DNA of 64,000 nucleotides, taken from Minisyncoccota bacterium (GTDB lineage Bacteria > Patescibacteriota > Minisyncoccia > Phycocordibacterales > JABAAK01). The first letter of the stretch is position 1; every line of letters starts with the position of its first letter. The position numbers and the translations under genes are program-made. The stretch covers positions 468,622 through 532,621 of the forward strand of contig OZ241963.1 of NCBI GenBank assembly GCA_965204115.1. The letters are read 5' to 3'. Below, piece after piece: positions 17,102 through 41,968 of the stretch. Below the pieces are notes generated by a model. It was not told where the DNA came from, did not search any database, and was given only the letters and a program-made list of their open reading frames with translations.

Positions 17102-17674
17102 CTATATAATCATTGCAGTCAGGTAATCCATAGGAGTCGGTCCCAGATCCTCCTCTTTCGGAACCTCAAGTTTTGTGAGTGCGTGTTCTATATCCTGTAT
17201 GTTGACATCATAGATAGGGATTATTTCGTTGATGTTGACCACCCTTTCTATCTTAAGGATGAGGCGCGCGCGATTGCCCGGGTCGTCTATGATGTTAAAT
17301 CCTTTGATGCGGTCTGTTTCCACGAAGTCGTCGTCCATAAATAAGCCGATAGGGGTTATATTGAAGAGCATGTGTCTCGGCTCTTTCCGTATGGTGCCTA
17401 CGATGGTCACCGTCGCAAGGGCGAGCAGTGCGCCGAATATATAGTTTTTTATGATGATTGCCAGCAGTATTGCTCCTATACCGACGATAATGATGAGCAA
17501 CTCCTTGTCTTTCGTGTATGTTTTCTTTTCCTCAGTGAATTGCCACTTAACGAGAGATTCCATGTTTTCCGTTACGGAAGGTTTTTGATCGGGGGATTCT
17601 TGATTCTTTGTTTTTTCTGTTACTGTTTCTTGTTTCATACGCATATGTAGGCAGTATACACCGTTCATACACAC
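17102..17674 (-). CDS. Hypothetical membrane protein
   Basis: ORF with two predicted TM helices (LLIIIVGIGAILLAIIIKNYIFGALLALATVTIVG). No recognised domain. Confidence 0.4.
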   Translation of the reverse strand: MCMNGVYCLHMRMKQETVTEKTKNQESPDQKPSVTENMESLVKWQFTEEKKTYTKDKELLIIIVGIGAILLAIIIKNYIFGALLALATVTIVGTIRKEPRHMLFNITPIGLFMDDDFVETDRIKGFNIIDDPGNRARLILKIERVVNINEIIPIYDVNIQDIEHALTKLEVPKEEDLGPTPMDYLTAMII

Positions 17675-17715
17675 CAGCCGCTCGTTTTGTAATTGGTGGT
17701 ATACTGCTGTTATAT

Positions 17716-23503: not shown

Positions 23504-26062
23504 ATGTCTCCATTCTCGGCAGTGTGGCGTGTTTTCCTGCTTACCCTCGGTTTGACAGTGCTTATCAGCGTGGGTTTTCTCGGGGTGGCGGACGCGCAAG
23601 AGTCTACAACCCGCCGAAGCCCCTTGGATTTGGTAACAACCTGTGCCGCTGATGAATATGCCACCAGAACCAAAGAGGGCATCGTCTGCAAGGCGCCCAC
23701 AGACAACTGGGATAGTGAGGCCACCGCAGGCAGTCACTGCAGAACAGGACAGTTTCTGAAAGTTACCCCAACCGGCCTGCAGTGTTTTCCCTTCAGCGAC
23801 AAGACCAGCACCTACACCACCTACTGCTCCGACTGCTGCGGAGTTGAAGAATTTGCCGTCATCACTACCCTGGGGTTGCGTTGCGCGGGTGCCAGTTGTT
23901 CCAGTGACAGTGAGTGTGCTGGTAATGCCCACTGTGACCCCATCATCAACCGCTGTGTGCAGTGTGTCGGTGACAACTGCGGGGAGTGTGTCTGGGACAC
24001 TAACTACTCCTGTGATTCTGCGCAGCCGACAAAACGGGTCAAGCATTGTCGATTCTCCGGGGTTATACGGAATACGCAGTTCCTGACCTGTCCGCATAAC
24101 GGGACCTGTTCGGGTGGGGCGTGTGTGTGTGTGCCGAAAACTTCCGGGGGCTGGACTGCCGCGCCGTCGTGTGCCGCGCCGTCCTCCGTGCGGTGTGACA
24201 CAGCCATTCCCGATAAGTATGGCACCTGTCGGTACGGCACCACTGCGGCTTGTGAGACGATACAGTGTACCGGCACGCGACCGACGCGAACCTGCACCGG
24301 CAGGGGTACCTATTGCCCGACCGGTCAACAGTGTGGCGTGTATGGCTGCTATTCTCCGACAGGCACCTCCCCTTCTTCATACAGTCCTGCTTCGTATAGT
24401 AGTGCCCCTTCTTCATACACTCCTTCCTCCTACCCCCCCTCCTCCTATGTTGACTCCCCTCCTTCCTATCCTATTGTTGACCCCCCTCCTTCTATTGACT
24501 GCAGCAGCAAATCCTCTTGTGGGTGTTTACAAGACCAGTGTGTGGGTAATCAGGCGTACAGTTGCTCCTGTGTCGCTCGTTCGGGTCGCTGCGTTCTGAG
24601 TCGTACGCTGACCCCGTGTTCGCATGGTTGTAGTAACGGTTCATGTGATGATGACAGCCGAGGGAAGGGGGGAGGTGTAGGTGTTCGTGATCAAGGAGGC
24701 AGTTGTCCTTCGCCGAGCTACACCTGCGGTAATTGGAGCGGAGGATGTCTTACGGCGGGCAGTTTTGGCGGGTTGGTTACCGGGAACAGCAAGATACGGA
24801 GGTGTACCTGTGAATCTGAAGGCTGCTGTGATCAGGGGTCAGAGTGGTTAGAGCACGGGAATTGTAGTCAAGGCACATCAACGAATACGAAGAAGACATA
24901 CACCGGCACATGGTCAAGAGGGAGTTGTAGTTCCTCGAAAAAGATCTGTGGTATAGGAAACTTTGAGACTGAAACTTTCACCTGCTCTGTGACCTGTTCC
25001 GGAGGCGCCTGCGATCCGACTACAAAACCGAGCGGATCATACAGTGTTGAAGGAGGGTGTTGTAATGGTGGGGTAGGTATAGCATGTACTACTGATGTGC
25101 AAAGAAAACAATATGAAGACACAAGGAAGGGCGCAGAACTTGTCGTAGACACCCTCACAAGTAACCATTGTCATACGGGTGGTCGGTGTGTAACATGCTC
25201 TTCAATAGTCGGTGGACATGAGGACACCGGTCATGGTTGCGGCCCTCATAATAGTGACAGCTCTGCTACCCCCCCGTCCTACCCGCCGAATAGTTACCCT
25301 TCAGATAGTGAAGATAGTGATACTCCTCCCTGCAGCCCTAATGAGTGTGGTTGTTCTAACACCGGGACATGGTGTCATGGGGGTTCATCAGAGAGGTCAT
25401 GTTATTGCGCAGTGAGCAACGGGTCGTGTGTAAGGAAATATTCTACATCATCTTGCGCTAGTGGGGTCTGTAGCGGCGGGTCATGTACCTCAGCCGGTAA
25501 TACTCCGAATAGTTATCCTCCAAAAAGTTACTCGCCAAAAAGCTACAGTCCAAAAAGTTACTCTCCGAGAAGTTACAGTCCAAGAAGTTACTCTCCGAGA
25601 AGTTACCCTTCAGATAGTGATACTCCTCCCTGCAGCCCTAATGAGTGTGGTTGTTCTAACACCGGGACATGGTGTCATGGGGGTTCATCAGAGAGGTCAT
25701 GTTATTGCGCAGTGAGCAACGGGTCGTGTGTAAGGAAATATTCTACATCATCTTGCGCTAGTGGGGTCTGTAGCGGCGGGTCATGTACCTCAGCCGGTAA
25801 TACTCCGAATAGTTATCCTCCAAAAAGTTACTCGCCAAAAAGCTACAGTCCAAAAAGTTACTCTCCGAGAAGTTACAGTCCAAGAAGTTACTCTCCGAGA
25901 AGTTACTCCAAGAAGCCGAGAAGTTACAGTCCAAGAAGTTACTCTCCGAGAAGTTATTCCTCATCATCAGCGAGCCTCCATTGTCATTGGGGTGGTAAGT
26001 GCAGAACCTGCGGAGAAGGTCAAGGACACGAGGATACTGGTCACAGTGGTTGCAGTCATTAG
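23504..26062 (+). CDS. Giant secreted Cys-rich protein, paralogous to the C-terminal half of 17716..22224
   Basis: Signal peptide. Many Cys-rich modules. Two tandem copies of TPPCSPNECGCSNTGTWCHGGSSERSCYCAVSNGSCVRKYSTSSCASGVCSGGSCTSAG followed by SY(S/P)P(K/R) repeats. His/Cys tails HCH.GG.C.TC...GHEDTGH.GC. Confidence 0.75.
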   Translation: MSPFSAVWRVFLLTLGLTVLISVGFLGVADAQESTTRRSPLDLVTTCAADEYATRTKEGIVCKAPTDNWDSEATAGSHCRTGQFLKVTPTGLQCFPFSDKTSTYTTYCSDCCGVEEFAVITTLGLRCAGASCSSDSECAGNAHCDPIINRCVQCVGDNCGECVWDTNYSCDSAQPTKRVKHCRFSGVIRNTQFLTCPHNGTCSGGACVCVPKTSGGWTAAPSCAAPSSVRCDTAIPDKYGTCRYGTTAACETIQCTGTRPTRTCTGRGTYCPTGQQCGVYGCYSPTGTSPSSYSPASYSSAPSSYTPSSYPPSSYVDSPPSYPIVDPPPSIDCSSKSSCGCLQDQCVGNQAYSCSCVARSGRCVLSRTLTPCSHGCSNGSCDDDSRGKGGGVGVRDQGGSCPSPSYTCGNWSGGCLTAGSFGGLVTGNSKIRRCTCESEGCCDQGSEWLEHGNCSQGTSTNTKKTYTGTWSRGSCSSSKKICGIGNFETETFTCSVTCSGGACDPTTKPSGSYSVEGGCCNGGVGIACTTDVQRKQYEDTRKGAELVVDTLTSNHCHTGGRCVTCSSIVGGHEDTGHGCGPHNSDSSATPPSYPPNSYPSDSEDSDTPPCSPNECGCSNTGTWCHGGSSERSCYCAVSNGSCVRKYSTSSCASGVCSGGSCTSAGNTPNSYPPKSYSPKSYSPKSYSPRSYSPRSYSPRSYPSDSDTPPCSPNECGCSNTGTWCHGGSSERSCYCAVSNGSCVRKYSTSSCASGVCSGGSCTSAGNTPNSYPPKSYSPKSYSPKSYSPRSYSPRSYSPRSYSKKPRSYSPRSYSPRSYSSSSASLHCHWGGKCRTCGEGQGHEDTGHSGCSH
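25307..25915 (+). repeat. Tandem duplication of an about 300-bp cassette (2 copies, above 95% identical); a third about 90%-identical copy lies in the neighbouring gene at about 21791..22100
   Basis: The stretch gatactcctccctgcagccctaatgagtgtggttgttctaacaccgggacatggtgtcatggggg...agttactctccgagaagttac is repeated with a period of about 300-309 bp. The homologous stretch in gene 17716..22224 differs at a few positions. Confidence 0.85.
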
Positions 26063-28063: not shown

Positions 28064-28378
28064 TCTGGTTTCCTCCTCAAAATAGCGTTACAAGACCTTT
28101 TTAGGGTCTTTTTTGTTAAGGCTCAAACTACAGTTATTATACAATACTGTAGCAAATATGCAAGTTACCGTAGGCACTTGCTGAGCGATATTATCTGACT
28201 TTACCCCGCTCTTCTGGCACCAGTATACCGCACCCCTTTCTCGCTGCCAATACCGATTTCTTGTTTTTGCAGTAGTCGGTTTGGTGCGGAAGGGGGTGGG
28301 ATAGGTTGGGGTGAGGGGCTCTTTGATTATTGTGTTGCATTTTCCGCCGTGTATTTTTTCAGGGTTGTATACTGGGAA

Positions 28379-31300
28379 TATGGTTGTGCGTTGTTTTTTC
28401 TATCTCTTTCTTTTTTTTGGACTATTCTTATCACCGGTTGCCATCGCGGAAGGTGCTGTTGTTTCCGGTGCCGCTCCGGGGGAGATGAAAGATGTGTTGG
28501 TGGATTGCCTGTCACTGGCGGATGAGCGGGATGCCTGCTATGCGACTGCTTGCGAGTATGAGCCCGGGTACTTGTGTGCGGAAGATGTGCTTGATGTGGT
28601 GGTAGAGATTGCCGGTCCGGAGCGAGCGATGGGGGTGCTGCACGAGATAATGGCGAGCCCTGTGTTTGCTATTACCTCTGACGGGCATCTGTTATCGCAT
28701 ATTGTCGGTCGAGCGACATCGCGCGTGTTCGGCTCTTCAGGGAACAATTTCTTGCGCTGTCCTTCTGACTTTAACAACGGTTGTTTTCACGGTTTTTTTG
28801 AGGACACCCTTCCGAAATCGGATTCGCCGGTGGATGTGGTTGTTTCTATTTGCGAGAATATGCCTCCTGACACACCGTTGAAAGAAAAATCCTATTGCTA
28901 TCACGGTGCGGGGCATGTGTTTATGATGCAGGTGAGCCATGATCTTGATGCTGCAATTGATCTTTGCCTGCAGGTGCCTGAGAATTGGTCGGAGAGTTGT
29001 TGGCAGGGGGTTTTTATGGAGAATGCCGGTGAGCGGGAGTGGGAATTGAAGCGGAAGAATTTTCGGGAAGATGAGCCATTGTATCCGTGTACCGCTGTTG
29101 AAGATCGTTTTAAGACCGAGTGCTATGTCAATCACCACGGATATCTTATCCGGCACTATAGCGAGTCATGGGATGAACTTGTTGCTGTATGTCTCGGTGC
29201 GGAGGATTTCACGCATGCCTGTCTCGGTGGCTTGGGGCTCATGCTCGGCAGTGATTTTTGGACTACCATCGTCGCTCAAGGGACACCTGTTGAAGGTAGG
29301 CCCCACACGGAGCAGGTGGTTTTTCTCTGTAATCAGTTTCCCTATGATTACATAGATGTTTGTTACTCCAATCTTATCCCTTCGTTTCTTAATTTTGACG
29401 GCACGGATATTCGAAATGCCTCAGGGGTGTGTGCTCTTGCCGATGCAGAGCATCGGCATGCTTGCTTCGAGCGCATCGGCTCTTACCTGAGTAATTTAGT
29501 TTCCGATGAGTCGGAAAAGATTGCTGTATGCCATAGTGTTCCGAGAGAATATCGTGATGCGTGTTTGGGTGTGCGTTCGGAAGAGTTTGATGGATATGTA
29601 GATAGGGAGGTGTCCGAGGGCACTGCGGCTAATGGTTCCGGTTCATTTTTCTCTAGAGCAGTTCAGTTTCTTTCCGCGTTATTTGGCCGTTTAGCAACGG
29701 CTTTTACGCGACCGGTGCATGCACATTCTGGTGGTAGTGATGAGCAGGATCTGTCTCGGTATGCGCACCCTGAATTGCATCAAGGTCTTGAGGTGTGTTT
29801 ATCGTTGCAGGAGGGGAGGGATATGTGTTATTTGTCTCTGTGTGATGGTGCTGTTGGGTTTCTTTGTGCGGAGGATGTACTGCATACCGCCACGGTCGGT
29901 TTTGGTCCCGAGGTGGCGATGCAGGTGTTGGAGGAGATGATAGCAAGCCCCCTTTTTTCATTCAATGCGGCGAACGAAGGGCACAGCTTGGCGCATGCTA
30001 TTGGGAGAATAACTGCACAGCACTTCGGTGGCACCGGCGATGCCTTTTTGCGATGTCCCACTGCACTTGATTATGGCTGCCAGCATGGGTTTCTTGAGGA
30101 TGCGTTGATTAGAGTTGACTCTCCCGCGGAGGCGGTGACGAATATTTGTGAAAGTTTGCCGGCAGTGCCGACGATAGGTCGACCGAATTGCTACCATGGT
30201 TCGGGGCATGGAGTGATGATGAATGCGAGCTATGACCTTGCTGAGGCACTTGCTGTGTGTGATCAGGTTCCCGATCCTTTGAGTTGTTTTACCGGAGTTG
30301 CTATGGAGAATGTGAGTGGGAAGACCTCCGGTAGAATACAGGAACTATATGCAGAGCATGACAGTTTTGAAAAAGATAACCCGCTGGCGCCCTGTGACAC
30401 ACTGACTGACACACTTCATCGCAGGGCGTGTTATCGACAGCACATGCCGTATTTGGCATCTTATTTCAGCCATGACCTGCAGGATGTGGTGGATGCCTGT
30501 CTTGGTGCGGGTGATCCTGTTGATATTCGTGATTGTGTGTTTGGCTTCGGTGCGTATGGTATCTATGACGGCATTCAGGAGAGTTTTCTTCACGGTTTTG
30601 AGGGTGATTTTATGGACAAAATAATTATTATGTGCAATCAGTTTCCTGAGGAATACCGCATGCATTGCTACACACCGGCGATTGATCAGTCGACTGTTTT
30701 TTATCGGGTGAAAAGGGCTTCTGATTTTTGTTATAAGATTGACGCGCGATACATGCGGGAGTGTTTCAATGTCATCGGCGATCGTTTGAGGAGTTTAGTT
30801 GTTGATCGTGACGAGACAGAAGCAGAGTGCTCTTCAGTTCCTGAGGAGTATCGGATTGAGTGTACTGATCCGCATCGGCATCAAGGGGAAGATGTCTCTG
30901 TTGATACGCCTTTTGGCGTGATAGCGGTTGAGCAGGCATCCGATTCTTTATTTGCGTGGGTTAAGCAGCTTCTTTCTGACATTGTTGCGGATGTATTCAG
31001 TGTGCTTGGTATGTTTGCTCGCCCTGTTTCCGCGCAAAGTGTTGCTGTGCCTTTAGCTGAAGGGGTGGAAAAATGTTTGGAGCAAGGGGGTGAGGTGGCG
31101 TGTTATGCTTCGCTGTGTGCATATGAGTCAGGGTATTTGTGCGCGGAGAGTATTTTGGAGGTGGTGACGAAAGGGTGGGGTCCTGAGGTTGCTATGGAAA
31201 TACTGATGAATATGATACAGAGCCCACTTTTCTCTTTTAGTCCGTCATCAGAGGGGCATAACTTAGCTCATACCGTTGGTCGGGTTACAGCGCAATGGTT

Positions 31301-33419
31301 TGGATCTGATGGAGTGTCATTTATCAGATGCCCGACTGATCTTGCGTATGGCTGTCACCATGGGTTTTTTGAGGTTGCACTTGTCGCATCGGAAGGCGAC
31401 CCTGCCGCCGCGGTTCACAGCATCTGTGAGCATATGCCGGATAAGCCGGAGTTGGGGAAGGTGAGTTGCTATCATGGTGCCGGTCACGGGATAATGATGC
31501 ATGAGAGCCATGACTTAGATAGAGCACTTGCGGTGTGCGATCAGTTGTCTCACGGGCGGAATATTTGCTATGATGGTGTTTTTATGGAGCATATTAACGC
31601 AAGGCATGGTCTCGGATCGGAGAATAATCAGTTTGATGTTCATAATCCCCTTGCGCCGTGTAATGTTGTTGCAGAGAAGTATCGGCATGATTGCTTCTAT
31701 CGGCATGGGAACTATCTGTTCCCCTATTTCGGGTATTTATTGGAGGATGTTATTGAGGCGTGTCTCGGTGCCGGTGAGCACATTGAGGTGTGCTTGACTG
31801 CTGTTAGCGGCTCTTTGTTTCTTCCCAGTTTTCAGGAGCGGGTGTTTCCCGGTATGCGAGGTTCATTAGCGGATAAGGCGACGACGATATGCGGTGTGTT
31901 TCCTGATGGGTACAAGCGTGTCTGTTATGTTGTTTTTGCCGGAGAGGCGACTATTTTTCATGGAGCGAAAGAGGCATCAACTCTTTGCTCTGATGTTGAT
32001 AAGGTATATCAATCGTTATGCCTGAGAGAGGTTAATAGGAGAGTTAATGATTTGGCGGCAACTGATTACGAGCGAATTGCGATGTGTGCTGCTGTTTCTG
32101 AAGAGTACCAGCATGTATGCTTGTCTGAAGGTGATTTTGATCGTCGTTCTGATCAGGCTGAGGAGACAGCAAGTTCCACCCCCCCCTCTTTTTTACACGA
32201 CTTATTTGCTTATGTGGATAGTGTTGTGCGCTCATTTTTTTCCGCGGTTGTCGCTATAAAGCGTCCTATCAAGAATGTATCTCATGCTGATTGTGATGCC
32301 TCTCCTGTATGGCGATATGTGGGTGATTTTGTGTATGGAGGTGTTGGGGATCGTGACTATTTCGGGGATGCCGTCTCTTTATTCGGCACTACGCTTGCGG
32401 TTGGTGCGTTTGGAGATGATGCTGGTGATATTGACACTGGGGCGGTGTATTTGTTTGAGTTGGGGGGTGGCGCCCTCGGAGATCCGTTACTTAAAATTTC
32501 CGGCGAGCAAGCAGGAGAGGGATTGCTTAATGTCGGTTTGGAGGCGAGAGATCGTCTTGGCAGAGGTTTGTCACTTCAGGGCAATACTCTTGCGGTGGGC
32601 GCGTATTATGATTCAGAAAAGAAGGGGGCAGTATATCTGTTTGAGTCGGATGCTGAAGGTGTTTGGAGTCAGTCGCTCAAGATATCTGACAATGAAGGTG
32701 GTAAAGGATTACTTCCGATTTCTCTGAGTCGTGCCGCTCATTTTGGCGCATCTGTGTCGTTGCACGGTAACAGATTGGCAGTCGGCGCATATTTGTCTGA
32801 TGACGGTATGGGTGCGGTGTATCTGTTTGAGAGGGATGCTGACGGTATTTGGTCATACCTGTTGAAGTTGTCCGGGACAGTTGTTCCGCATGAGCGGGAT
32901 GCTGCGTTTGGGCGATCTGTTTCCCTGTATGGTGATTTTTTGGCAGTCGGCGCACCTCGGAGTGGCCCTGGAGATACCGGGGCGGTATATCTTTTTAATC
33001 GCGATGCATCTGGCACATGGGATCTTGTGTTAGAATTTTCTGTCACTGGTGCGGGAGTTGACTTGTCAGAGGGTCTGGATGAGAATGATCATTTCGGAAC
33101 CTCAGTTTTTCTTCGTGATACTGTTCTTGCGGTCGGTGCGTATGGAGATGATAGTGAAATTGCTGATACCGGAGCAGTGTACTTATTTGAGAAGAGTGTC
33201 GGCAGTAACTGGGAGCAATCGTTGAAGATATCTAATGCCAGTGAGTTATTCATCGTGCCTCTTGAGGAGGGCGGGATGTTCGGGAGTGCTGTCTCGTTTT
33301 CCGATGAGGTGTTAGTTGTCGGTGGATACCTGTATGATAGCGGGGGCACTGAAAGAGGTGTGGTTTATTTATTTGAAAATGAGTTGCAAAATACTTGTTC
33401 TGCTCAATATCGCCTATGA
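28379..33419 (+). CDS. Giant secreted protein: three copies of a novel Cys/His-rich module of about 400 aa, followed by a C-terminal FG-GAP beta-propeller
   Basis: Signal peptide. Module hallmarks recur three times: (E/G)RDACY..LC.YE.GYLCAE.VL, GH.L.H.VGR, FLRCP.D...GCFHGFFE, CYHG.GHG.MM, C..GVFMEN, DNPLAPC, ACLGAG. The C-terminal roughly 370 aa carry seven FG-GAP-like blades (FG.SVSL.G..LAVGA...D.GAVYLFE). Confidence 0.7.
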
Positions 33420-34651
33420 TTATGTTAAGCCGTGTAAAAAGAAAAAGTGTGCCATTTGTTATTGCGGTCATTTTTTTGATTATTCTTTTCACACTTGCTT
33501 TTTTGTTTGTGGGGGCAACAGAGGATCAAAGGGGTGGTCATTCAGCAATGATGCGTTCTGTAAGTCGGTGTTTAGAGCGGGATGGTGAGCGAGATGCGTG
33601 CCTTGCATCTTTGTGTGAACATGAAGTTGGCTATTTGTGTGCTGAACATGTTGTTGATATGGCGACTAAGGTTGGTGGACCTGAGGCGGGAATGGATGCT
33701 TTGCGGCAGATATTGGAGGGTCCTGTTTTCGGAATTGACTCAAACGGGCATCAGTTGGCACATATTGTGGGCAGGGCATCTTCGTTGCACTGGGGATTCT
33801 CCGGTGATGTTTTTAATCGGTGTCCTATTGATTTTGACTATGGTTGTTTGCATGGTTTTTTTGAGATTGCCATGACCAAAGTTGACTCCCCGACGGATGT
33901 ACTTGTTAGTATTTGTGAAAATGCATCTAACGGTCCGAAGTTTGATAAAGTGAATTGCTATCACGGCGGCGGACATGGTGTCATGATGAATGAGAGTTAC
34001 AACCTTGATAAGGCGCTCTCAGTATGTGATTCTTTGCCGGCTGATTTCATGCGTCGGGATTGTTGGGGAGGTGTCTTTATGGAGAATAATAATAGGTTTC
34101 GAAATGGTTTGGTGGCGGATGAACAGAGCACATTCCGCTCGGACAATCCGCGCGCGCCTTGTGACTCTGTGGCAGATAAGTATCGGCATTCGTGCTGGAT
34201 ACTTCATGCTGATTATCTGATTAACGCCTACAGCACTTCATTGGATGATTTGATTGATGTTTGTCTTGGGGCCGGTGATTATGTTGAGGGATGTTTGCAT
34301 GGTGTCGCCAGGATATTTTCCGCTGAACGGCAGGATGTTATACTCCGCGGATCTGATATTGAGATAGAGGGAGACTTTGTCGATCGCACTTTCCAGTTAT
34401 GCGATAAGTTTCCCGATGATTATGTGCAGTCATGCCATTTTTTTGTTGTTGAGCATTTTATATTTCCGTATAAACTTCGCACTGGCTTTGATCAGGCACA
34501 TAAATATTGCATGCTCGTTGATTCTGATCGGGGTGAATGTTTTGAAAGAATAGGAATTCGTCTCAGCGATTTGATGGATGATGACGCGCGAGTGGCTATG
34601 TGTGAGGCTGTTCCACCTGAATGGCGCGATAGGTGTTCCGATGCTCGGTAA
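33416..34651 (+). CDS. Secreted protein with a single Cys/His-rich module; paralog of the 28379 modules
   Basis: N-terminal TM or signal segment. Same motif set: ERDACLASLCEHEVGYLCAEHV, GHQLAHIVGR, FNRCPIDFDYGCLHGFFE, CYHGGGHGVMM, GVFMEN. Overlaps the upstream stop by 4 bp. Confidence 0.6.
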   Translation: MIMLSRVKRKSVPFVIAVIFLIILFTLAFLFVGATEDQRGGHSAMMRSVSRCLERDGERDACLASLCEHEVGYLCAEHVVDMATKVGGPEAGMDALRQILEGPVFGIDSNGHQLAHIVGRASSLHWGFSGDVFNRCPIDFDYGCLHGFFEIAMTKVDSPTDVLVSICENASNGPKFDKVNCYHGGGHGVMMNESYNLDKALSVCDSLPADFMRRDCWGGVFMENNNRFRNGLVADEQSTFRSDNPRAPCDSVADKYRHSCWILHADYLINAYSTSLDDLIDVCLGAGDYVEGCLHGVARIFSAERQDVILRGSDIEIEGDFVDRTFQLCDKFPDDYVQSCHFFVVEHFIFPYKLRTGFDQAHKYCMLVDSDRGECFERIGIRLSDLMDDDARVAMCEAVPPEWRDRCSDAR

Positions 34652-34707
34652 TAGGTTGCAGTGTTTTACTGAAATTGATGTTGTGTCATACTGTTACTAT
34701 TGTGCTT

Positions 34708-36216
34708 ATGAGAAAAGAGTTGTTGGCAGTTATTTTTTTGCTTTTCCTGTGTGTGGCGTTGAGTGTATTTTTTGTGCTTGATTTCGGTTTTGATGGCGCT
34801 GATCGCGCTTCACCGGATGTGGCTTTGACGCCTGCTATGGATTCAGAGAAGTTGTTGTATGACGATGCGTTTATGGATGAGATGCTGCAGTTGTATTCAC
34901 TGCGGTCGTTGACCGCTTCGCTGAGCCGTCTTGGGTCTGTGAAAGGGATTGATTGTCATGATCGCGCGCATGAGCTGGGGCGGCGGGCGTATGAGACGGT
35001 CGGTTCTGAGGCGTTTAAGAGTTGTGGCATTGAGTGTCATTCCGGCTGTCGGCATGGTGCTACCGAGGCGTTTTTTGCTGATAAGGGGACCTCCGATTTA
35101 ATCAGTGGCATGGGGGTTCTCTGCGGAGATGAGATGGGCAATAAGTTTCATATGCACCAATGTATTCATGGTATTGGGCACGGACTGATGGCGTGGTATG
35201 ATTATGATTTGCATAAGGCGTTGCAGGCGTGTGATTTGATAGAGCACCCGTTTCATCAGGGCTCTTGTTATTCTGGTGTGTTTATGGAGAATATCGTGGG
35301 CAGTATTGTTCGTGACAAATCGGTTCCTGATGGGGAGGTGTACCATCATACAGATTTTTTGAGTGATGATCCGCACTACCCATGTAATGCGATTGCTGAT
35401 CGGTACAAGTGGCAGTGTTACTGGGGTCAGACGGATCGCATGCTTCAGCTTTCTGGAAATATTAACTTATTAGGGGATTTTTGCGCCGAGTCACCGGAGT
35501 TTGTTCATGGTGCTTGTTTTCATAGTATGGGGCGAACCACCTCCGGTTTTTTTTCTCGTGACATAGGGCAGAGCTTTGCAGTGTGTGACGCGGTTCCTGA
35601 TGCTGCAAACAGAAATATCTGTATGGGGGGTGTGTTGTCTGATCTTTTTTGGGATCAAACACATGCCGATCGAGCGGTGGCTTTTTGTGAGATGTCATTA
35701 AACACTTCGTTTGAAGAGCGATGTTATGAAAACCTGATTATCAGGGCTTCTGAGACTGTTTCCGATGTGGATATGCGGTGGTTCTGTGAGAAGTTGCCTG
35801 ATGCCTACTATGAACAATGTGCGCATCAGGAGACACCGCGGGCATTTCCTATTTCTACACAGGGCGATATCTCGCCTGTCGCCGTGGAGAAAACCGATAC
35901 CGCGGTTATTCGGTATGTGGATGGCAGGTATGTTCCTGATGCGGTTCATATCTCAGTCGGGCAGGAGGTGGTGTGGGTGAATGAGGATGGTAAACGGTTG
36001 TTTTGGCCTGCGTCTAATATCCACCCGACGCATACTGCGTACCCGGGGTCTGCTATTCAGAAGTGTGGTACTGATGAGCAGGGGGGTATTTTTGATGCAT
36101 GTGAAGGGTTGCCGCGTGGCGCGGAGTATTCATTTGTGTTTACCGAGGTGGGGCAGTGGCGGTTTCACGATCATATCAATCCGCGGGCAGCGGGTACGGT
36201 GATTGTTTCTGAGTGA
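34708..36216 (+). CDS. Secreted protein: Cys/His-rich module (divergent) plus a C-terminal His-cluster beta domain
   Basis: Signal peptide. Module variant CHDRAHELGRRAYE...CHSGCRHGATEAFF...CIHGIGHGLMA...GVFMEN. C-terminal 110 aa: WPASNIHPTHTAYPGS...CGTDE...FHDHINPRAAGTVIVSE. Confidence 0.65.
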   Translation: MRKELLAVIFLLFLCVALSVFFVLDFGFDGADRASPDVALTPAMDSEKLLYDDAFMDEMLQLYSLRSLTASLSRLGSVKGIDCHDRAHELGRRAYETVGSEAFKSCGIECHSGCRHGATEAFFADKGTSDLISGMGVLCGDEMGNKFHMHQCIHGIGHGLMAWYDYDLHKALQACDLIEHPFHQGSCYSGVFMENIVGSIVRDKSVPDGEVYHHTDFLSDDPHYPCNAIADRYKWQCYWGQTDRMLQLSGNINLLGDFCAESPEFVHGACFHSMGRTTSGFFSRDIGQSFAVCDAVPDAANRNICMGGVLSDLFWDQTHADRAVAFCEMSLNTSFEERCYENLIIRASETVSDVDMRWFCEKLPDAYYEQCAHQETPRAFPISTQGDISPVAVEKTDTAVIRYVDGRYVPDAVHISVGQEVVWVNEDGKRLFWPASNIHPTHTAYPGSAIQKCGTDEQGGIFDACEGLPRGAEYSFVFTEVGQWRFHDHINPRAAGTVIVSE

Positions 36217-36293
36217 TTTTCACCGTTCTGTTGCATGTGGTACAGTGTGGTCAGAAATTGACGCTGTGTCAGTTGTGTATTTTGGTGTAAAAA

Positions 36294-38495
36294 GTGATTT
36301 CCCGAGATGTTTTCGGGAAGGAGGAATGCAGAGTGAGTAGATTGACGGAGATTATAACGGTGATGATTGTGTTTATTGTTTCAGTGGTGCTATTTTCGCC
36401 ATACACCCACGGCGATATTCGATTTGAGGAAGTTTCACACCACGCAGGGATTGTGCGAGTTGGTGAGAGTTGGGGGAATGCTTGGGGTGACTTTAACGGA
36501 GATGGATACCTTGACTTGTGGGCAACGAATCATCGGCATAAGCCGTGTCTCTATCAGAATAACGGTGACGGTACTTTCACGAATGTCATTGACGAGGTTT
36601 GGAACGCGAATCCATCTGCGGACACCCATGGTGTCGCGTGGGCGGATTTTGACAACGATGGTGACCAAGACCTCATTGTTCTGTCAGGCGGTACTGGTGG
36701 TCTTAATAACAGGGCTCGTGATAACAATGCTAATCATTTGTATGTAAATACTGACGGGCAGTTGGTGGAGCGAGCTGCTCATCTCGGCGTGGATTATCCG
36801 CTTTTGCGGGGGAGGACGCCGCTGTGGCTTGATTGGAATGGGGACGGTTTGCTTGATGTTCTATTAACCGGTGTTGCCCGAAAGGATGCATCCGGAGCGC
36901 TTGTCAGATCAACCCTCTTCAGTCAGGTGGATGGACGGTTTAAAGATGTGAACAGTATTTCAGGATTCTCTCTGGAGGAGAGTGTGGAATTTGCGCAACT
37001 AACGCACCTGACCGGTGAAGAGGGATTACACCTCATTTGCGGTTCTCATTCCCATATATATCCCGCTGCTGTGTACGACTTGTCGGGTGCGCTCTTGCAT
37101 AACATAACAGGTGCTTTGAATTTGCAGGGTGGCTTTGTTGTTCAGGATGCCGCAATTGCGGATATGAACGGCGATCTGCTGCCGGACATATTTCTTGCAC
37201 GGGGTATTTATCCGTCCAGTGTTCGTCAGCCGAGTGCGCGTAGGTTGGAACTTAATATTCAGAGCACCTTAGGGGTGCTTCCCCAATCTATCCTTGAGGA
37301 GAAGGGTGTCAGTTTCAGATCTGACGGCGCGGTGTTTTTTGAGGTTTATTCGGAATGGAAGCCGCGTCGTGATTTGGTTAAGATCGGCTCGGGTGGGCAT
37401 CCGGTAACATCTTTTGACAGTGGCATCTTTGCCGGTGTTATGCCGGACCTTAAGGCAGCGTCTTTTAAAGTTCGGCTGTCGCCGAGTAATCCGAGAGCCC
37501 AGGGGTTGCAGGCGCGTCGGGAAAATGAAAAGTTTGGGATTTACATAGGGTACAATGCCCGCACAAAAAAGTGGGAAATCCTTTATCGCAATCTGCCCGC
37601 GACAACATTGGTTGAGGCGGGCAATCCCATAACAGATGTGGAACCATTCAATTTCTTCCCTTCGGTTAATATGCATGGTGATTTGCTGATGCACAAGGGG
37701 AATGATTTTGAGGTGCTGTCTCCGTTGGGTGAAGCAGGGTTTCCGGATTGTCATTCTGTTGCGGCGGGGGACTTTGATAACGATATGGATGTTGATCTGT
37801 ATCTTGTCCGCTCAAGTACGGGTGAAAACCTCCCGAACTGTCTGTATGAGAATAATGGTGTCGGATATTTTATCCGAGTCAGGAATGCTGGCGGAGCGGC
37901 GGCGAATGTGGATGGCAGAGGTCAAAGTGTTACTGTTGCTGATTATGACCGGGACGGCTTCCTTGATCTTTTTGTGACCAACGGGAGAGGGGCGTACCCT
38001 TTCAGTGAAGGCCCCGACCAACTTTTCCGTAACCGTGGTAACAGCAACAACTGGCTTCAGATTGATTTAGAGGGATCTGTTTCCAACAGAGACGGTATCG
38101 GCGCGAAGGTTCTCGTCGTGACACCTGACGGAAAAACACAAGCGCGAGAAAACGGCGGCGGCATCCACTGGGCGCAGCAAGATCAGAAGCGTATTCATTT
38201 CGGGCTTGCGCAGAATGACAGCATTGTTGAGCTGACCGTTTTTTGGCCGAGCGGTATTGTGCAGAGGTTGCGGAATGTGGCGGTAAACCAGGTGCTGCGT
38301 ATTATTGAGACCGATGTTCAGGAGTCCCTCCACGGTGATGTTAATCAAGATGGGGTCGTCAATGTTTTGGATCTTGTTATTGTGGCGAAGCACTTCGGTG
38401 AAAGTCCTCTCGCTGATGTGTCGGCTGATGTGAACAAAGACGGGGCAGTGAATATTCTGGACCTCGTTGCCATCGCAAATGTAATGAGCAAATAA
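36294..38495 (+). CDS. FG-GAP repeat / ASPIC-UnbV (CRTAC1-like) protein with a C-terminal type-I dockerin
   Basis: Multiple FG-GAP Ca-binding loops (FNGDGYLDL, ADFDNDGDQDLIV, LDWNGDGLLDV, GDFDNDMDVDLYLV, ADYDRDGFLDLFVTNG). ASPIC/UnbV signature NRGN..NWLQIDLEG..SNRDGIGAKV...HFGL....ELTVFWPSG. C-terminal DVNQDGVVNVLDLVIVAKHFG and DVNKDGAVNILDLVAIANVM form a dockerin duplicate. Confidence 0.7.
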   Translation: MISRDVFGKEECRVSRLTEIITVMIVFIVSVVLFSPYTHGDIRFEEVSHHAGIVRVGESWGNAWGDFNGDGYLDLWATNHRHKPCLYQNNGDGTFTNVIDEVWNANPSADTHGVAWADFDNDGDQDLIVLSGGTGGLNNRARDNNANHLYVNTDGQLVERAAHLGVDYPLLRGRTPLWLDWNGDGLLDVLLTGVARKDASGALVRSTLFSQVDGRFKDVNSISGFSLEESVEFAQLTHLTGEEGLHLICGSHSHIYPAAVYDLSGALLHNITGALNLQGGFVVQDAAIADMNGDLLPDIFLARGIYPSSVRQPSARRLELNIQSTLGVLPQSILEEKGVSFRSDGAVFFEVYSEWKPRRDLVKIGSGGHPVTSFDSGIFAGVMPDLKAASFKVRLSPSNPRAQGLQARRENEKFGIYIGYNARTKKWEILYRNLPATTLVEAGNPITDVEPFNFFPSVNMHGDLLMHKGNDFEVLSPLGEAGFPDCHSVAAGDFDNDMDVDLYLVRSSTGENLPNCLYENNGVGYFIRVRNAGGAAANVDGRGQSVTVADYDRDGFLDLFVTNGRGAYPFSEGPDQLFRNRGNSNNWLQIDLEGSVSNRDGIGAKVLVVTPDGKTQARENGGGIHWAQQDQKRIHFGLAQNDSIVELTVFWPSGIVQRLRNVAVNQVLRIIETDVQESLHGDVNQDGVVNVLDLVIVAKHFGESPLADVSADVNKDGAVNILDLVAIANVMSK

Positions 38496-38504
38496 CAGTG
38501 TTTA

Positions 38505-38537
38505 CCCGCAGGCAATGTCTGCGGGTCTACTTTTTTG
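38505..38537 (+). terminator. Rho-independent terminator after 36294..38495
   Basis: CCCGCAGGCAATGTCTGCGGG hairpin followed by CTACTTTTTT. Confidence 0.65.
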
Positions 38538-38612
38538 TGGTGTGGCGATTGTTTCTGAGTGATTTCCACACAGTTTATTGCTCTTGCCCGTTGCGGTGTA
38601 TACTTGGTGTGT

Positions 38613-40019
38613 ATGGTTACTGAGAGGGTTTTTATTTTGTCTTTCTTGCTTGCATCTTTTTTTGCTGTTTCTTTGCTTTCTGCTGGTGTTGTGTATGCGC
38701 ATGGGGGTGAGGAGCATGCTGGGTTGGCGTCTGAGGTGAATGTGTGTCATTCGTTGTCGGAGGCGGAGCGAAGAGCATGTTATTCGGCGACCTGTGAAGG
38801 TGGTGTGACGGATGAGTGTCTGGAGGATATTGTTGATGCGGCGGTGGATGGTTCCGGTTTGAGGTTTGCTAATGCTGTGATGGCTGACTTGGAGAGTGCT
38901 GGGCTGTTAGATGATGCTGGCGTGTCTTTGTACGGACTTGCGCAACGAATAGGGGAGGTGATGGCACAGCAATATGTTGATGGCTTAGGGCCTATGACTT
39001 TTATGGATTGTGAGGTTGACCATCATTACGGGTGTCATTATGGGTATTTTGAGAAAGTGCTCTCTGCAGATGGTGTTTCGCTGGACATCATTTCAGCTGT
39101 TATTTGTGATGTGGATACTTCTCAGCAGGATGTGTGTTATCATCGGATGGGGCATATGTTTTTGAAACACCATAACTACTCGCTCTCTCCTGCGCTCTCT
39201 CAGTGCGATGCGTTGCCGAGCGCATTTCGAGCATACTGTTGGGATGGGGTGTTTATGGAGAATGTGAATGAATTTTTCTTCTCCAGGCGTGAGGGAGGTG
39301 ATGGGTTTATCAGTGATGAGCGGCCATTTGCCCCGTGTGATGCTATTGATGAGCGGTATCGTGAGCAGTGTTTTAAGAATCATGGTAGGTATCTGATTTA
39401 TTGGTTTGAGGATGCCCCTTTTGATGTGTTGGATGTTTGTGGTGACATTGAGGTCGGTGAATACGACGAGGTGTGTCGGCACTCAATTCGGGATGCCTCT
39501 TCCGGTGTGGATAGTCACCATACGCATGACGATATGGATACTATGCGTGGTGATGGGGTGGCGGATTCACGGTCATGGTTTCAGAAGCTGATTGACTTTG
39601 TTGTTGGGTTGTTTTCTGGTGGAGGTTCATCGGATCGGGTTGGTTCAGATGGTGAGGCATTTTCACGCATGTTTCCTGATGGTGTTGCACCGAGTGAGGT
39701 GGACCATAGTGTTATGATTTCCTATGAGAATGGGCAGTTTGTGCCGAATGAGGTGCGTATCGCGCCCGGGCAGGCGGTGCTGTGGATGAATAATGATCAG
39801 GTGTTTTGGCCTGCGGGGGATTTGCACCCGACGCACCGTGAATATCCCGGATCAAATATTACGAAGTGTCATACTGATGAGCGGTCAATGATTTTTGACG
39901 CATGTGAGGCGATGGGTCCCGGCGCGGCGTATGCTTTTCGGTTTAATGAAGTCGGTGAGTGGAAATTCCACGACCATATTAATCCAAAAGCGACGGGTAC
40001 GGTGATTGTGTCTCGCTGA
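38613..40019 (+). CDS. Secreted protein: Cys/His-rich module plus a C-terminal His-cluster beta domain; paralog of 34708..36216
   Basis: Signal peptide FILSFLLASFFAVSLLSAGVVYA. Motifs ERRACYSATCEGG, DCEVDHHYGCHYGYFE, CYHRMGHMFL, GVFMEN, FAPCD. C-terminus WPAGDLHPTHREYPGSNITKCHTDE...FHDHINPKATGTVIVSR. Confidence 0.65.
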   Translation: MVTERVFILSFLLASFFAVSLLSAGVVYAHGGEEHAGLASEVNVCHSLSEAERRACYSATCEGGVTDECLEDIVDAAVDGSGLRFANAVMADLESAGLLDDAGVSLYGLAQRIGEVMAQQYVDGLGPMTFMDCEVDHHYGCHYGYFEKVLSADGVSLDIISAVICDVDTSQQDVCYHRMGHMFLKHHNYSLSPALSQCDALPSAFRAYCWDGVFMENVNEFFFSRREGGDGFISDERPFAPCDAIDERYREQCFKNHGRYLIYWFEDAPFDVLDVCGDIEVGEYDEVCRHSIRDASSGVDSHHTHDDMDTMRGDGVADSRSWFQKLIDFVVGLFSGGGSSDRVGSDGEAFSRMFPDGVAPSEVDHSVMISYENGQFVPNEVRIAPGQAVLWMNNDQVFWPAGDLHPTHREYPGSNITKCHTDERSMIFDACEAMGPGAAYAFRFNEVGEWKFHDHINPKATGTVIVSR

Positions 40020-40135
40020 TGGTTGGTGTTTGTGTCTTGTTGCTTTTCTTGCGGTTATTTTTTGTATTTTTTCTGGGGCTGTGTGTTTTAGCGTGTTATA
40101 CTGACATTAGATTTTTTGAAAGGAGGGTTCTACCA

Positions 40136-40237
40136 ATGGCTGAAATTTTTGTTGGTGCTGTTGTTGCCGTGTCACTCATTGTGTTGACGGTGGTTGTTGC
40201 GCAACAGTTGGTTTCTTCCGGCGGCAGGGTGCAGTAG
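40136..40237 (+). CDS. Small hydrophobic peptide, 33 aa; possible
   Basis: A GGAGGG Shine-Dalgarno sits 8 nt upstream of ATG. The product MAEIFVGAVVAVSLIVLTVVVAQQLVSSGGRVQ is a single TM helix. A terminator follows. Confidence 0.3.
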   Translation: MAEIFVGAVVAVSLIVLTVVVAQQLVSSGGRVQ

Positions 40238-40261
40238 AAAGGTGGTGATCCCACATCTTAA

Positions 40262-40300
40262 AGAGCGGCTCTTTTGAGCCGCCTTTTATTTATTTTGTTG
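40262..40300 (+). terminator. Terminator hairpin GCGGCTC-TTTT-GAGCCGC plus T-tract (copy 1 of a duplicated sequence)
   Basis: Seen directly. Follows the plus-strand operon. The identical 18-bp hairpin recurs at 41934..41953. Confidence 0.6.
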
Positions 40301-40313
40301 ACAAAATGGCTTT

Positions 40314-40432
40314 TGCAAATAAAATGCAAAAATATCCTTATTTTAAGGGATATTTTTTTTATTTGCAAACCGCTGTGCAAATAAAATGTGAAAATATCCT
40401 TATTTTAAGGGATATTTTTTTTATTTGTAAAT
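40314..40432. repeat. Two tandem 56-bp nested palindromes with a 63-bp period
   Basis: TTTGCAAATAAAATG(C/T)(A/G)AAAATATCCTTATTTTAAGGGATATTTTTTTTATTTG(C/T)AAA occurs twice. Outer arms TTTGCAAATAAAA / TTTTATTTGCAAA. Inner arms ATATCCTTA / TAAGGGATAT. Confidence 0.8.
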
Positions 40433-40440
40433 ACAGGGTT

Positions 40441-41874
40441 TTATATCAAACGCTTGGATGGAAGGGTGTATAGTGTGCTCTTTTTGCTTCCGTCAGGGCT
40501 GATTCTTTTTAATAGGCCCTTTGCAACCCAGTTCGCGAGTGTGCGTGACATTTCATCTGTCTGAGTGATGCCGGTAATTTCTCGTGCTTTTGCGTTGTCA
40601 ATATGCATTGCATGAGCAAGGTGATTGCGTATCTTTTTCCATTCGCTTGAACACTTTTCATTTTTCAGCACTAGTTTTACGCAGTAGTGCAGGTCTGGGT
40701 ATGTTATGAAAAGAGGCGGGTAGAGATTGTTTTTCTCCATCTCTCCTCGCATTGCTTTGACACTCTCGTTGCGGTCAAGGTTGGGTGGTTCCGGAAAATC
40801 TCTGAGCGTTTTGATTATAAGATCATTTCGGAACCCCATCGCTCGCTCGTTGCCGATGTTGTGTTTTGTTATGTTAAATGGAAATAATCCTGGGTTGGTA
40901 ATTTCGATTCTGTTGGGGAATATGTTAATTTCTATGTCTTGTTTTATGTGGTAGTCGCGGTGTATGATTGCATTGGTTATGCCTTCCTTGACTGCGCGCT
41001 CAGGTAAGGCGAATGATGTCTTGAACCCTGCGCGGATTTCAATTCCTGTGTTTAGAATCTGTAATACCTGCCTCTGTGTTTCTTGTATTACCTGTGTAAT
41101 TGCCCCTTGAATAATTTGTGGCACTCCAGTAAAGTTTGGCGTTTCCCCGAGCACTTCTTCATTTGTTGTGTACACTGCGATTTTTACGGCACATTTTGTT
41201 TCCATAAGGTTGGTTGGGTGTTCGGCGAACAGTAGCACAGCAGCTCGTGTTGGTTTTAGTGTTCCTGTGCGCTCACCCTTTCTCGCCAGTCCTTTTGATT
41301 CCAGAACATGACCGATGCCTTCACCCTTTTCCCTTAGTTTATTCTTTTTTGCCCATTGTTGGTAGTGTGTGGTTTCAAGTAAATCAATGGATACTCGGTC
41401 AACCAATTCTGCTTCTGCCCGCTTAAATCCTTTCGCATAACTGAGCTGTAGGGCTTCATGCGGTGCCAACTCTTTGTTACCTTTGTTGAGACGGATGAAC
41501 ATCCTTTTGTTTACACTGTGAAGTGATTCTTGCGCTTTTGGTATGCGTAGCAGAGCAATGGTTTTATCGTTTGGCGCATGAACTTTTTCACATCGGGTAG
41601 GTATTTGCGGTATGACTTTGCCTAAGCAGCGAATTATTTCGTCAAAATTTTCTTTATTCTCCTCAATGCCAAATATTCGGCCGTGTCCTTTTAGTGTTGT
41701 TTTTTCAGGGTCACTGACCCCTAAGATAATGGTGCCGCCGTCGGCGTTGGCCATTGCCACCGATGCCTGTAAAACAGATTTGACGGTCTTGGAGTCATTG
41801 CCGAGTCGCTTGAATTCAATTTCGTTGCTCTCTTCGGGGATTTCTAATATTTGTTTTATCGATATCGGTTTCAT
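40441..41874 (-). CDS. AlbA_2 (Schlafen-like 'divergent AAA') domain protein with a C-terminal HATPase_c_4/wHTH region; putative nucleic-acid-binding regulator or defence factor
   Basis: N-terminus EIEFKRLGNDSKTVKSVLQASVAMANADGGTIILGVSD matches the AlbA_2 signature. Length 477 aa. The C-terminal region has a helix-turn-helix character (AKAREITGITQTDEMSRTLANWVAKGLLKR). Confidence 0.7.
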   Translation of the reverse strand: MKPISIKQILEIPEESNEIEFKRLGNDSKTVKSVLQASVAMANADGGTIILGVSDPEKTTLKGHGRIFGIEENKENFDEIIRCLGKVIPQIPTRCEKVHAPNDKTIALLRIPKAQESLHSVNKRMFIRLNKGNKELAPHEALQLSYAKGFKRAEAELVDRVSIDLLETTHYQQWAKKNKLREKGEGIGHVLESKGLARKGERTGTLKPTRAAVLLFAEHPTNLMETKCAVKIAVYTTNEEVLGETPNFTGVPQIIQGAITQVIQETQRQVLQILNTGIEIRAGFKTSFALPERAVKEGITNAIIHRDYHIKQDIEINIFPNRIEITNPGLFPFNITKHNIGNERAMGFRNDLIIKTLRDFPEPPNLDRNESVKAMRGEMEKNNLYPPLFITYPDLHYCVKLVLKNEKCSSEWKKIRNHLAHAMHIDNAKAREITGITQTDEMSRTLANWVAKGLLKRISPDGSKKSTLYTLPSKRLI

Positions 41875-41931
41875 AGCAGTACTATATCATTAAATGAAAT
41901 GGTTTGTGTGGAGGGGGTGTCCTGCATTTTA

Positions 41932-41968
41932 GGGGCGGCTCTTTTGAGCCGCTTTTTATTTTTGTTTG
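41932..41968 (+). repeat. Second copy of the terminator-hairpin sequence GGGGCGGCTCTTTTGAGCCGCTTTTTATTTTTG, with no plus-strand gene to terminate
   Basis: Same 18-bp hairpin core and T-tract as 40262..40300. Together they flank the AlbA_2 gene and the tandem palindromes. Confidence 0.6.

Follow-up and report, generated by a model that had tools for sequence, protein, structure and literature searches.

The locus analysed here raises the question of how a gene for a secreted protein ending in a dockerin, a module that docks onto cohesins, came to lie in the genome of a bacterium of the candidate phyla radiation (CPR, or Patescibacteria), and what its product could do there. The window, meaning the whole 64-kb stretch of DNA that was analysed, belongs to a contig of 661,662 bp, on which all the window genes looked up were found, and covers about 10% of the CPR genome; every negative result given below for the window refers to this portion. 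Taken together, sequence comparisons and structure models make it likely that the gene, located at 36333–38495 on the + strand, is a poribacterial dockerin gene now residing in a CPR bacterium, that it has converged on the codon usage of its host, and that it encodes a two-part adhesin.

The translation of the open reading frame (ORF) at 36294–38495 (+) ends in GDVNQDGVVNVLDLVIVAKHFGESPLADVSADVNKDGAVNILDLVAIANVMSK followed by the stop codon, exactly matching the C-terminal residues quoted in a preliminary description of this DNA. These residues include a genuine dockerin of the duplicated F-hand type (38331–38480, +), with a helix after each loop and with the dockerin fold in its model. In the Pfam scan that the preliminary description had called for, Dockerin_1 (PF00404) matched residues 680–729 of the ORF, corresponding to nt 38331–38480, scoring 41.0 bits (gathering score, 22.9; E = 2.3e-10). 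A regular expression for the 12-residue Ca-binding loop (D-x-[NDS]-x-[DN]-G-x5-[DE]), run over the six frames of the window, gave three matches across the 64 kb, two of them being the dockerin loops DVNQDGVVNVLD and DVNKDGAVNILD at 38337–38372 and 38427–38462, in the same frame and 30 codons apart. The duplicated Ca-binding segments described earlier were therefore recovered as two intact loops at the same place. In both repeats, acidic or amide residues occupy loop positions 1, 3, 5, 9, and 12 and the loop leads into a helix, and the Ca ligands D682/N684/D686/D693 and D712/N714/D716/D723 fall in columns that are invariant or at least 90% conserved among 121 homologs.

Comparisons with solved structures gave the same picture. 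A phmmer search of PDB sequences with the dockerin segment matched dockerins only (2y3n_B, E = 1e-9), and AlphaFold2 modelled the 58-residue module with a predicted local distance difference test (pLDDT) score of 94 and helices at module residues 16–24 and 46–57, one per loop. When this model was compared with the PDB by Foldseek, the best 27 matches were all dockerins, with a top TMq of 0.83 (2ozn_B) and a root-mean-square deviation of 1.0 Å to 2y3n_B; the corresponding E-values are weak (at least 8.5e-3) because the domain is small. Identity with solved dockerins ranged from 31 to 41%, with template modelling (TM) scores from 0.6 to 0.8.

The preliminary description had spoken of a textbook type I dockerin at the C-terminus of an FG-GAP/ASPIC-UnbV protein. 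The dockerin, its position, and its carrier were borne out by Pfam and by the fold comparisons, but type I cannot be assigned to the module from its sequence. The recognition rule for type I in Clostridium thermocellum, which goes with type I cohesin specificity, is a Ser-Thr pair at loop positions 10 and 11, and this pair is absent from both loops, which show V-L and I-L instead; across the family of CRTAC1-dockerin proteins, these positions hold I, L, or V followed by L, E, D, or Q. The best structural neighbours of the module are a mixture of non-cellulosomal (2ozn_B), type II-labelled, and type I dockerins, and the "type I" in the Pfam label of PF00404 is generic. The clostridial cellulosomal dockerins of Xyn10B (1OHZ_B/2CCL_B) and Cel48S (1DAQ/2MTE), as well as 2Y3N_B, share with the window module the match to PF00404, the loop and helix repeated twice, and the C-terminal location on a secreted protein. 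In contrast to them, the window module has hydrophobic residues at loop positions 10 and 11 and is attached to a CRTAC1-like propeller instead of a glycoside hydrolase, no scaffoldin was found in the window, and the host is not cellulolytic.

Regarding the carrier, the coding sequence at 36333–38495 is predicted to encode a Sec-secreted, Ca-binding, CRTAC1-like propeller protein ending in the dockerin. The most likely start is the GTG codon at 36333, with an AGGAGG motif 8 nt upstream, which yields a protein of 720 aa identical to the database entry P0001. The first codons (36333–36413) would specify a Sec signal peptide, MSRLTEIITVMIVFIVSVVLFSPYTHG, whose n-region is basic, whose hydrophobic core spans 15 residues, and whose c-region reads T-H-G; this call is a reading of the sequence by eye. 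The same stretch was modelled by AlphaFold2 as a single N-terminal helix, and the homologs have an equivalent hydrophobic N-terminus. It is followed by an FG-GAP beta-propeller body (36420–38090), identified by Pfam (FG-GAP_3 in four stretches, E = 3.2e-28; FG-GAP, E = 3.3e-12), AlphaFold2, and Foldseek, and by a UnbV_ASPIC beta-sandwich domain (38094–38297; PF07593, residues 601–668, E = 6.6e-17). The full-length AlphaFold2 model (pLDDT 83) has an all-beta body, and its top fold match in the PDB was murine CRTAC1 (9etn_A; E = 9e-25, TMt 0.70), to which phmmer also aligned residues 482–676 (E = 3e-23). Pfam, phmmer, and Foldseek thus all showed the succession of FG-GAP propeller and UnbV_ASPIC domain that marks CRTAC1/ASPIC-UnbV proteins. 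With murine CRTAC1 (9ETN), the propeller and the UnbV/ASPIC domain are in common at only 15% identity, and whereas vertebrate CRTAC1 ends in an EGF-like Ca-binding domain, the window protein ends in a dockerin.

The genome around this gene, judged by its RecA, is that of a Kaiserbacteria-like Patescibacteria bacterium. The window carries housekeeping genes, among them a RecA that is 82–88% identical to proteins named Candidatus Kaiserbacteria, with other named matches in Paceibacterota, Parcubacteria, and Patescibacteria and with relatives on contigs of 0.6–0.85 Mb. The tetranucleotide correlation between the window and its CPR relatives was 0.94. When 41 window proteins were compared with 1.69 Mb of loci from Poribacteria, a phylum of sponge symbionts, only the dockerin protein matched throughout, so no synteny is common to the window and the poribacterial loci; three other window proteins gave weak matches of 25–28% identity, at one locus each. 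A poribacterial nature of the window itself was ruled out by its RecA and by its synteny with CPR strains.

The relatives of the dockerin protein, on the other hand, are poribacterial. Its homologs number in the thousands, and those of the best 120 that carry an organism name are all assigned to Candidatus Poribacteria. Species-representative genomes, when scanned, yielded 274 relatives, and the listed ones that bear a dockerin (46–69% identity) are titled Poribacteria, except for three metagenome-assembled genomes titled "uncultured bacterium"; cyanobacterial and proteobacterial homologs, about 40% identical, end near residue 660, short of the dockerin. The dockerin-bearing family, elsewhere confined to Candidatus Poribacteria, comes in a short form (about 715 aa), which ends at the dockerin and has no sorting domain, and a long form (about 870 aa), in which the dockerin is followed by a helical linker and then by a FlgD_ig/Por_Secre_tail sorting domain of the kind used by the type IX secretion system (T9SS). 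The window protein belongs to the short type. In an outgroup-rooted neighbour-joining tree, it grouped with the core short-form clade of Poribacteria in 99 of 100 bootstraps, on a long branch, and all dockerin-bearing members were monophyletic in 100 of 100. The synteny rplL-orf280-gene-ADH was found in nine out of nine short-form poribacterial loci, so these nine appear to have inherited the gene vertically within Poribacteria. Since the window protein is nested in the short-form clade and the synteny is kept in Poribacteria, the comparisons indicate that the gene is of poribacterial origin and that the transfer ran from Poribacteria to the CPR bacterium. The poribacterial short forms P0002 and P0004, named as CRTAC1 family or FG-GAP-like repeat-containing proteins, show the same order of signal peptide, propeller, UnbV_ASPIC, dockerin, and stop as the window protein, at 66–70% amino-acid identity, and what sets the window gene apart from them is its CPR host, its site outside the rplL-orf280-gene-ADH context, its CPR-like codons, and its longer branch.

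Comparison with related CPR strains defined the limits of the acquired segment. On the left, a 23-bp direct repeat, GATTGTTTCTGAGTGATTTTCAC, lies at 36201–36223 (+) and spans the 3' end of the CPR gene lying upstream (34633–36216), stop codon included, and a further 7 nt; on the right, a second copy, GATTGTTTCTGAGTGATTTCCAC, identical to the left one at 22 of 23 positions, lies in non-coding sequence at 38547–38569 (+), just before the next CPR paralog. Both copies were located by regular expression and pairwise alignment. Strain L083, in contrast, has an empty site with a single copy of the repeat, and its DNA homology with the window ends at 36223 and restarts at 38547, so that the segment missing from it is exactly 36224–38546, or 2.3 kb, comprising the gene, its leader, and its terminator. 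A second strain, L085 (on a contig of 203,763 bp), runs directly from one paralog to the next, as judged from gene order only. The contigs of both strains carry a RecA 96% identical to that of the window, and the AlbA_2 neighbour gene of L083 clusters with the window AlbA_2 at 90% identity. Within the insert, the leader (36224–36332, +) contains the AGGAGG motif at 36319–36324 and a small inverted repeat at 36299–36319, and in sequence comparison, it resembled no other retrieved locus. An intrinsic-terminator-like hairpin with a 10-bp stem, seven of its pairs being G-C, followed by a run of T, lies at 38504–38536 (+), 9 nt past the stop codon. From this layout, the dockerin gene is a foreign, single-gene insert of 2.3 kb placed between CPR genes, with its own putative ribosome-binding site and terminator. 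No integrase or transposase was found near the 23-bp repeats of the insert, and a repeat of 23 bp exceeds the typical target duplications of transposases. The same repeat could also drive a precise loss of the insert.

These limits bear on whether Poribacteria DNA might simply have been mis-joined into the CPR contig during metagenome assembly, as the metagenomic origin of the data and the finding of all nearest relatives in another phylum might suggest. However, CPR sequence lies on both sides of the gene within one contig, the boundaries coincide with a precise 23-bp duplication of host sequence, and the codon usage and strand skews fit CPR genes and no poribacterial ortholog, the best nucleotide identity to the latter being just about 70%. 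Such an artefact is extremely improbable.

The composition of the gene is ordinary for its host: GC (0.50), GC at third codon positions (0.50), and GC skew (+0.195) are like those of the CPR neighbours, and its relative synonymous codon usage correlated at 0.83 with CPR genes, at 0.29 with the short-form orthologs, and at about 0 with GC-rich poribacterial genes. Horizontal acquisition was thus not betrayed by atypical composition, and it was the nesting in the tree and the empty site that revealed it. The host-like composition points to convergence on the CPR host after an old transfer and a long residence. A GC-rich poribacterial donor was considered as the source of this composition and rejected, as codon usage was mismatched there too (r about 0).

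The preliminary description had placed the gene inside a paralog array, which holds by position but not by kinship. The array is formed by the genes at 28311–33419, 33395–34651, 34633–36216, and 38559–40019, whose products share a Cys/His-rich domain unrelated to CRTAC1 in blastp comparisons, and in the same comparisons the dockerin protein, a foreign insert among these CPR proteins, had no paralog in the window. One array member is a 1702-aa FG-GAP_2 protein and the other three are proteins of 418–527 aa; a weakly matched cupredoxin-like domain forms the C-terminus of two array proteins (...HDHINPxAxGTVIVS; Cupredoxin_1, with a sub-threshold E of about 0.007). The array (28311–40019) is conserved in the related strains L083 and L085.

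It had also been proposed that the giant proteins around the gene are assembled on a scaffold, which would make the locus a native cellulosome-like system with the paralogous giant proteins of the window held by cohesins. The dockerin itself is genuine by Pfam, many proteins of the window are very large and look secreted (852–1702 aa), and about 90% of the CPR genome lies outside it, all of which such a system would accommodate. Nevertheless, this dockerin is the single one in six frames of 64 kb: neither the regular expression nor a dockerin hidden Markov model (HMM) applied to the other window ORFs found a second one in the window, and 55 kb of sequence taken from three CPR strains related to it contained none. 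Moreover, no cohesin was detected in the window by Pfam or by an HMM of poribacterial type, the dockerin protein is dissimilar to its neighbours, and the gene is a foreign insert absent from sister strains that retain the same giant proteins. Scaffold assembly of the giant proteins was consequently not supported, and a native system of this kind is very unlikely. The case is a caution that the presence of a dockerin in a stretch of DNA does not make its neighbours part of the same system.

If the partner of the dockerin is not in the window, the donor phylum is where cohesins were found. A search with the family dockerin profile matched 40,333 representative proteins, and three of the 67 top matches scanned contained a cohesin. 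One of them, P0416, combines a cohesin, a dockerin, and an FGE-sulfatase domain and is encoded on a contig of 5,011,778 bp (locus L092), which was assigned to CATQHZ020000001.1, the Poribacteria chromosome that also carries the CRTAC1-dockerin gene L025, on the basis of adjacent coordinates and a tetranucleotide correlation of 0.886. Six tandem cohesin genes occupy positions 4873–16717 of L092, scoring 38–45 bits against a Pfam threshold of 24.1, and they encode a 261-aa cohesin with a T9SS-type sorting domain, a 222-aa protein with a cohesin only, and four cohesin-dockerin-FGE-sulfatase proteins. About 16 kb separate the nearest of these genes from the CRTAC1-dockerin gene. On this chromosome, therefore, cohesins and multiple dockerin proteins occur in one genome. 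A further cohesin protein, P0372 (6346–8448 of locus L091, on a contig of 183,523 bp), consists of leucine-rich repeats (LRR), a cohesin, a dockerin, and a sorting domain and is homologous over its full length to poribacterial LRR-dockerin proteins that themselves have no cohesin; its gene adjoins a DDE_3 transposase gene. The earlier claim that a dockerin implies a cohesin scaffold is thus plausible for the donor system in Poribacteria, with six cohesin genes 16 kb from a CRTAC1-dockerin gene, but it is unproven for the CPR genome, with no cohesin seen in the window.

Dockerins in Poribacteria extend beyond the CRTAC1-like family. In the poribacterial loci, the dockerin HMM detected about 50 such ORFs of non-CRTAC1 type, usually arranged in tandem immediately upstream of the long-form gene; ten were scanned, and each proved to be a sulfatase or an LRR protein in which the cargo comes first, then the dockerin, and last the T9SS-type sorting domain. 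In sulfatases and LRR proteins, a cassette of dockerin, helical linker, and FlgD_ig/Por_Secre_tail/CHU_C domain was observed at L002, L003, L005, L013, L027–L029, L031, L033, L042, L043, L057, and L061, and the presence of a T9SS-type sorting domain in Poribacteria is notable in itself. Long-form loci (e.g., L002, 886–12625) show a conserved gene order of Hen1, Pnkp, NosD-like, glycosyltransferase, LTD protein, one or more LRR-dockerin genes, and CRTAC1-dockerin. Mammalian CRTAC1/LOTUS binds the LRR protein NgR1, and the adjacency of LRR and CRTAC1 genes in Poribacteria may or may not be a coincidence. ORFs of about 860 aa near the dockerin arrays were considered as scaffoldins and turned out to be the conserved Pnkp RNA-repair gene. 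Among the 67 proteins scanned, 10 combine dockerins with FG-GAP_3 and four with PG_binding_1, and the strongest matches to the dockerin profile (P0277–P0425) contain 5–16 tandem dockerin stretches, as in an 827-aa protein with eight dockerins and a clostripain domain. Poribacteria have many dockerin-tagged sulfatases, and the ties of FGE-type enzymes to cohesin and dockerin there hint that an assembly related to sulfatases is organised at the surface.

From these data, a mechanism may be proposed. In Poribacteria, the dockerin would be a standard tag on surface and secreted proteins, such as sulfatases, LRR proteins, CRTAC1-like proteins, and FGE-sulfatase proteins, and would be read by cohesins, including the small cohesin with a T9SS-type sorting domain as a possible surface anchor. 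The short-form protein lacks a sorting domain and would therefore depend on docking between its dockerin and a cohesin, in a Ca-dependent manner, to stay at the poribacterial surface. In the CPR bacterium, the exported protein, with both halves intact, would most likely act as a two-part adhesin, its propeller binding a ligand of the matrix or of a surface and its dockerin docking onto a cohesin, which may be encoded elsewhere in the CPR genome or be carried by co-resident Poribacteria.

Several observations weigh against this proposal. As the preliminary description had already noted by eye, no cohesin is recognisable in the window: Pfam gave no Cohesin match in window ORFs of at least 150 aa, nor in the large unannotated ones when E-values up to 10 were admitted, and an HMM of poribacterial type, built from seven cohesins (the six of L092 and P0372), agreed, with zero matches in the window, the CPR relatives, and the other loci, about 80 in number; at these loci, it detected no cohesin within 10 kb. 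A first HMM derived from CipA (three CipA cohesins and 11 homologs) proved nearly blind to non-cellulosomal cohesins, and its negatives were discarded. Furthermore, cohesins were found in just one Poribacteria chromosome, in addition to the L091 contig of unconfirmed taxonomy, and a pattern scan of the + strand upstream of the dockerin gene gave no sigma-70-like promoter. Finally, the codon usage of the gene is fully CPR-like, yet the two strains with 96% identical RecA are without it; an old gain followed by a repeat-mediated loss and a transfer among CPR strains are both possible.

Some of these points would suit a dockerin without a partner, serving as a Ca2+-stabilised structural spacer or folding module both here and in Poribacteria, a role widely considered for dockerin-like repeats outside cellulosomes. 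The lack of cohesins near the 80 or so loci agrees with it, as do the internal position of the module in most family members, linker-like between cargo and T9SS-type sorting domain, and the poly-dockerin arrays, of up to 16 stretches, among the top profile matches, so rarely accompanied by a cohesin. However, Poribacteria do encode cohesins, some of them joined in cis to a dockerin of this kind and one to a sorting domain. Moreover, members of the short-form clade terminate with the dockerin, as do the enzymes of cellulosomes, and have no other retention signal, and the helices are conserved along with the Ca loops. The spacer is possible but rather unlikely.

Likewise, the absence of the gene from two close strains, the long branch, and the missing promoter-like site could be read as those of a decaying passenger, acquired by chance and functionless in its CPR host, the more so as the protein retains 267 of 285 family-conserved positions (93.7%; positions at least 90% conserved), against 95–99% in the poribacterial members. 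All the Ca ligands are nonetheless included among the positions retained, the substitutions are mostly conservative, an intact ORF of 720 codons with ribosome-binding site and terminator is kept in a genome of about 0.66 Mb, and the full convergence of codon usage implies a long, undisrupted residence. A gene in decay is distinctly improbable.

For the adhesin proposal, known systems offer precedents. In NagH-NagJ of Clostridium perfringens (2OZN), the dockerin is likewise on a non-cellulolytic secreted protein, and 2OZN_B was the best structural match of the window module; the NagH-NagJ binding is known experimentally, whereas the window dockerin is known from its sequence and model, and the cargo families differ. 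In freshwater Planctomycetes, a "planctosome" has been proposed, in which cohesins and dockerins would assemble surface proteins that have no link with cellulose (PMC6461901). There too, dockerins are on non-cellulolytic secreted proteins, with cargo families different from that of the window protein, and by analogy, this precedent makes the mechanism plausible without proving it. Unlike in both systems, the window gene was apparently imported from another phylum into a region without a cohesin. Regarding such imports, horizontal gene transfer into Patescibacteria has been described for metabolic capacities in the terrestrial subsurface (PMC12455944); in what that source presents, a streamlined CPR genome likewise appears to gain a single gene from a foreign phylum, with the difference that the gene in the window encodes a surface protein with a dockerin tag and stems from a phylum of sponge symbionts. 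In our literature search, no paper on dockerins in CPR was found, and no discussion of the poribacterial cohesin-dockerin repertoire was found in the searchable literature.

Beyond the dockerin gene and the array, other features of the window were recorded. The whole window shows a strong, consistent positive GC skew and a negative AT skew on the + strand, on which most genes lie. The giant CPR proteins encoded at 17608–22224 and 23504–26062 have in common a 134-aa segment of 75% identity (residues 1360–1493 and 672–804, respectively), PG_binding_1 domains are present in the products of both 17608–22224 and 54448–58398, and window proteins of 1099 and 852 aa gave zero Pfam matches. The Schlafen/AlbA_2 and HATPase_c_4 gene at 40441–41874 (− strand), with a GC of 0.44 and a codon usage unlike that of its neighbours (r = −0.35), may be another mobile or defence-related gene; in the strain comparison, short repeated segments were observed around it (region 40083–41963), at about 40240–40470.

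As a dockerin, the module is a further member of a known family and ordinary in itself; it is its cross-phylum setting that is unusual. The interest of the locus appears to lie in the transfer across phyla into CPR and in the poribacterial cohesin-dockerin repertoire, which appears to be undescribed. Poribacteria appear to have a phylum-wide, non-cellulosomal repertoire of this kind, comprising sulfatases, LRR proteins, CRTAC1-like proteins, FGE-sulfatase proteins, and a cohesin with a sorting domain, and it may organise the handling of the sulfated host matrix by sponge symbionts. For its part, a CPR genome of about 0.66 Mb retains a whole poribacterial surface-protein gene intact, docking tag included. 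The CPR group is thought to live attached to other microbes, and to our knowledge, the hosts of most CPR lineages are unknown. In this context, the CPR bacterium might be an episymbiont of Poribacteria, or their close neighbour in sponge tissue, docking through its host-derived dockerin onto poribacterial surface cohesins such as the L092 cohesin with a sorting domain; this extension is speculative and, as it stands, unlikely. The report of Kaiserbacteriaceae from sponges (PMC7426153) makes it ecologically plausible, which is not proof. If true, a host-derived adhesin would provide a concrete candidate for the host of this CPR bacterium, the cross-species docking of dockerin onto cohesin would be a mechanism of attachment or piracy, and the gene would point, at the molecular level, to the host itself.

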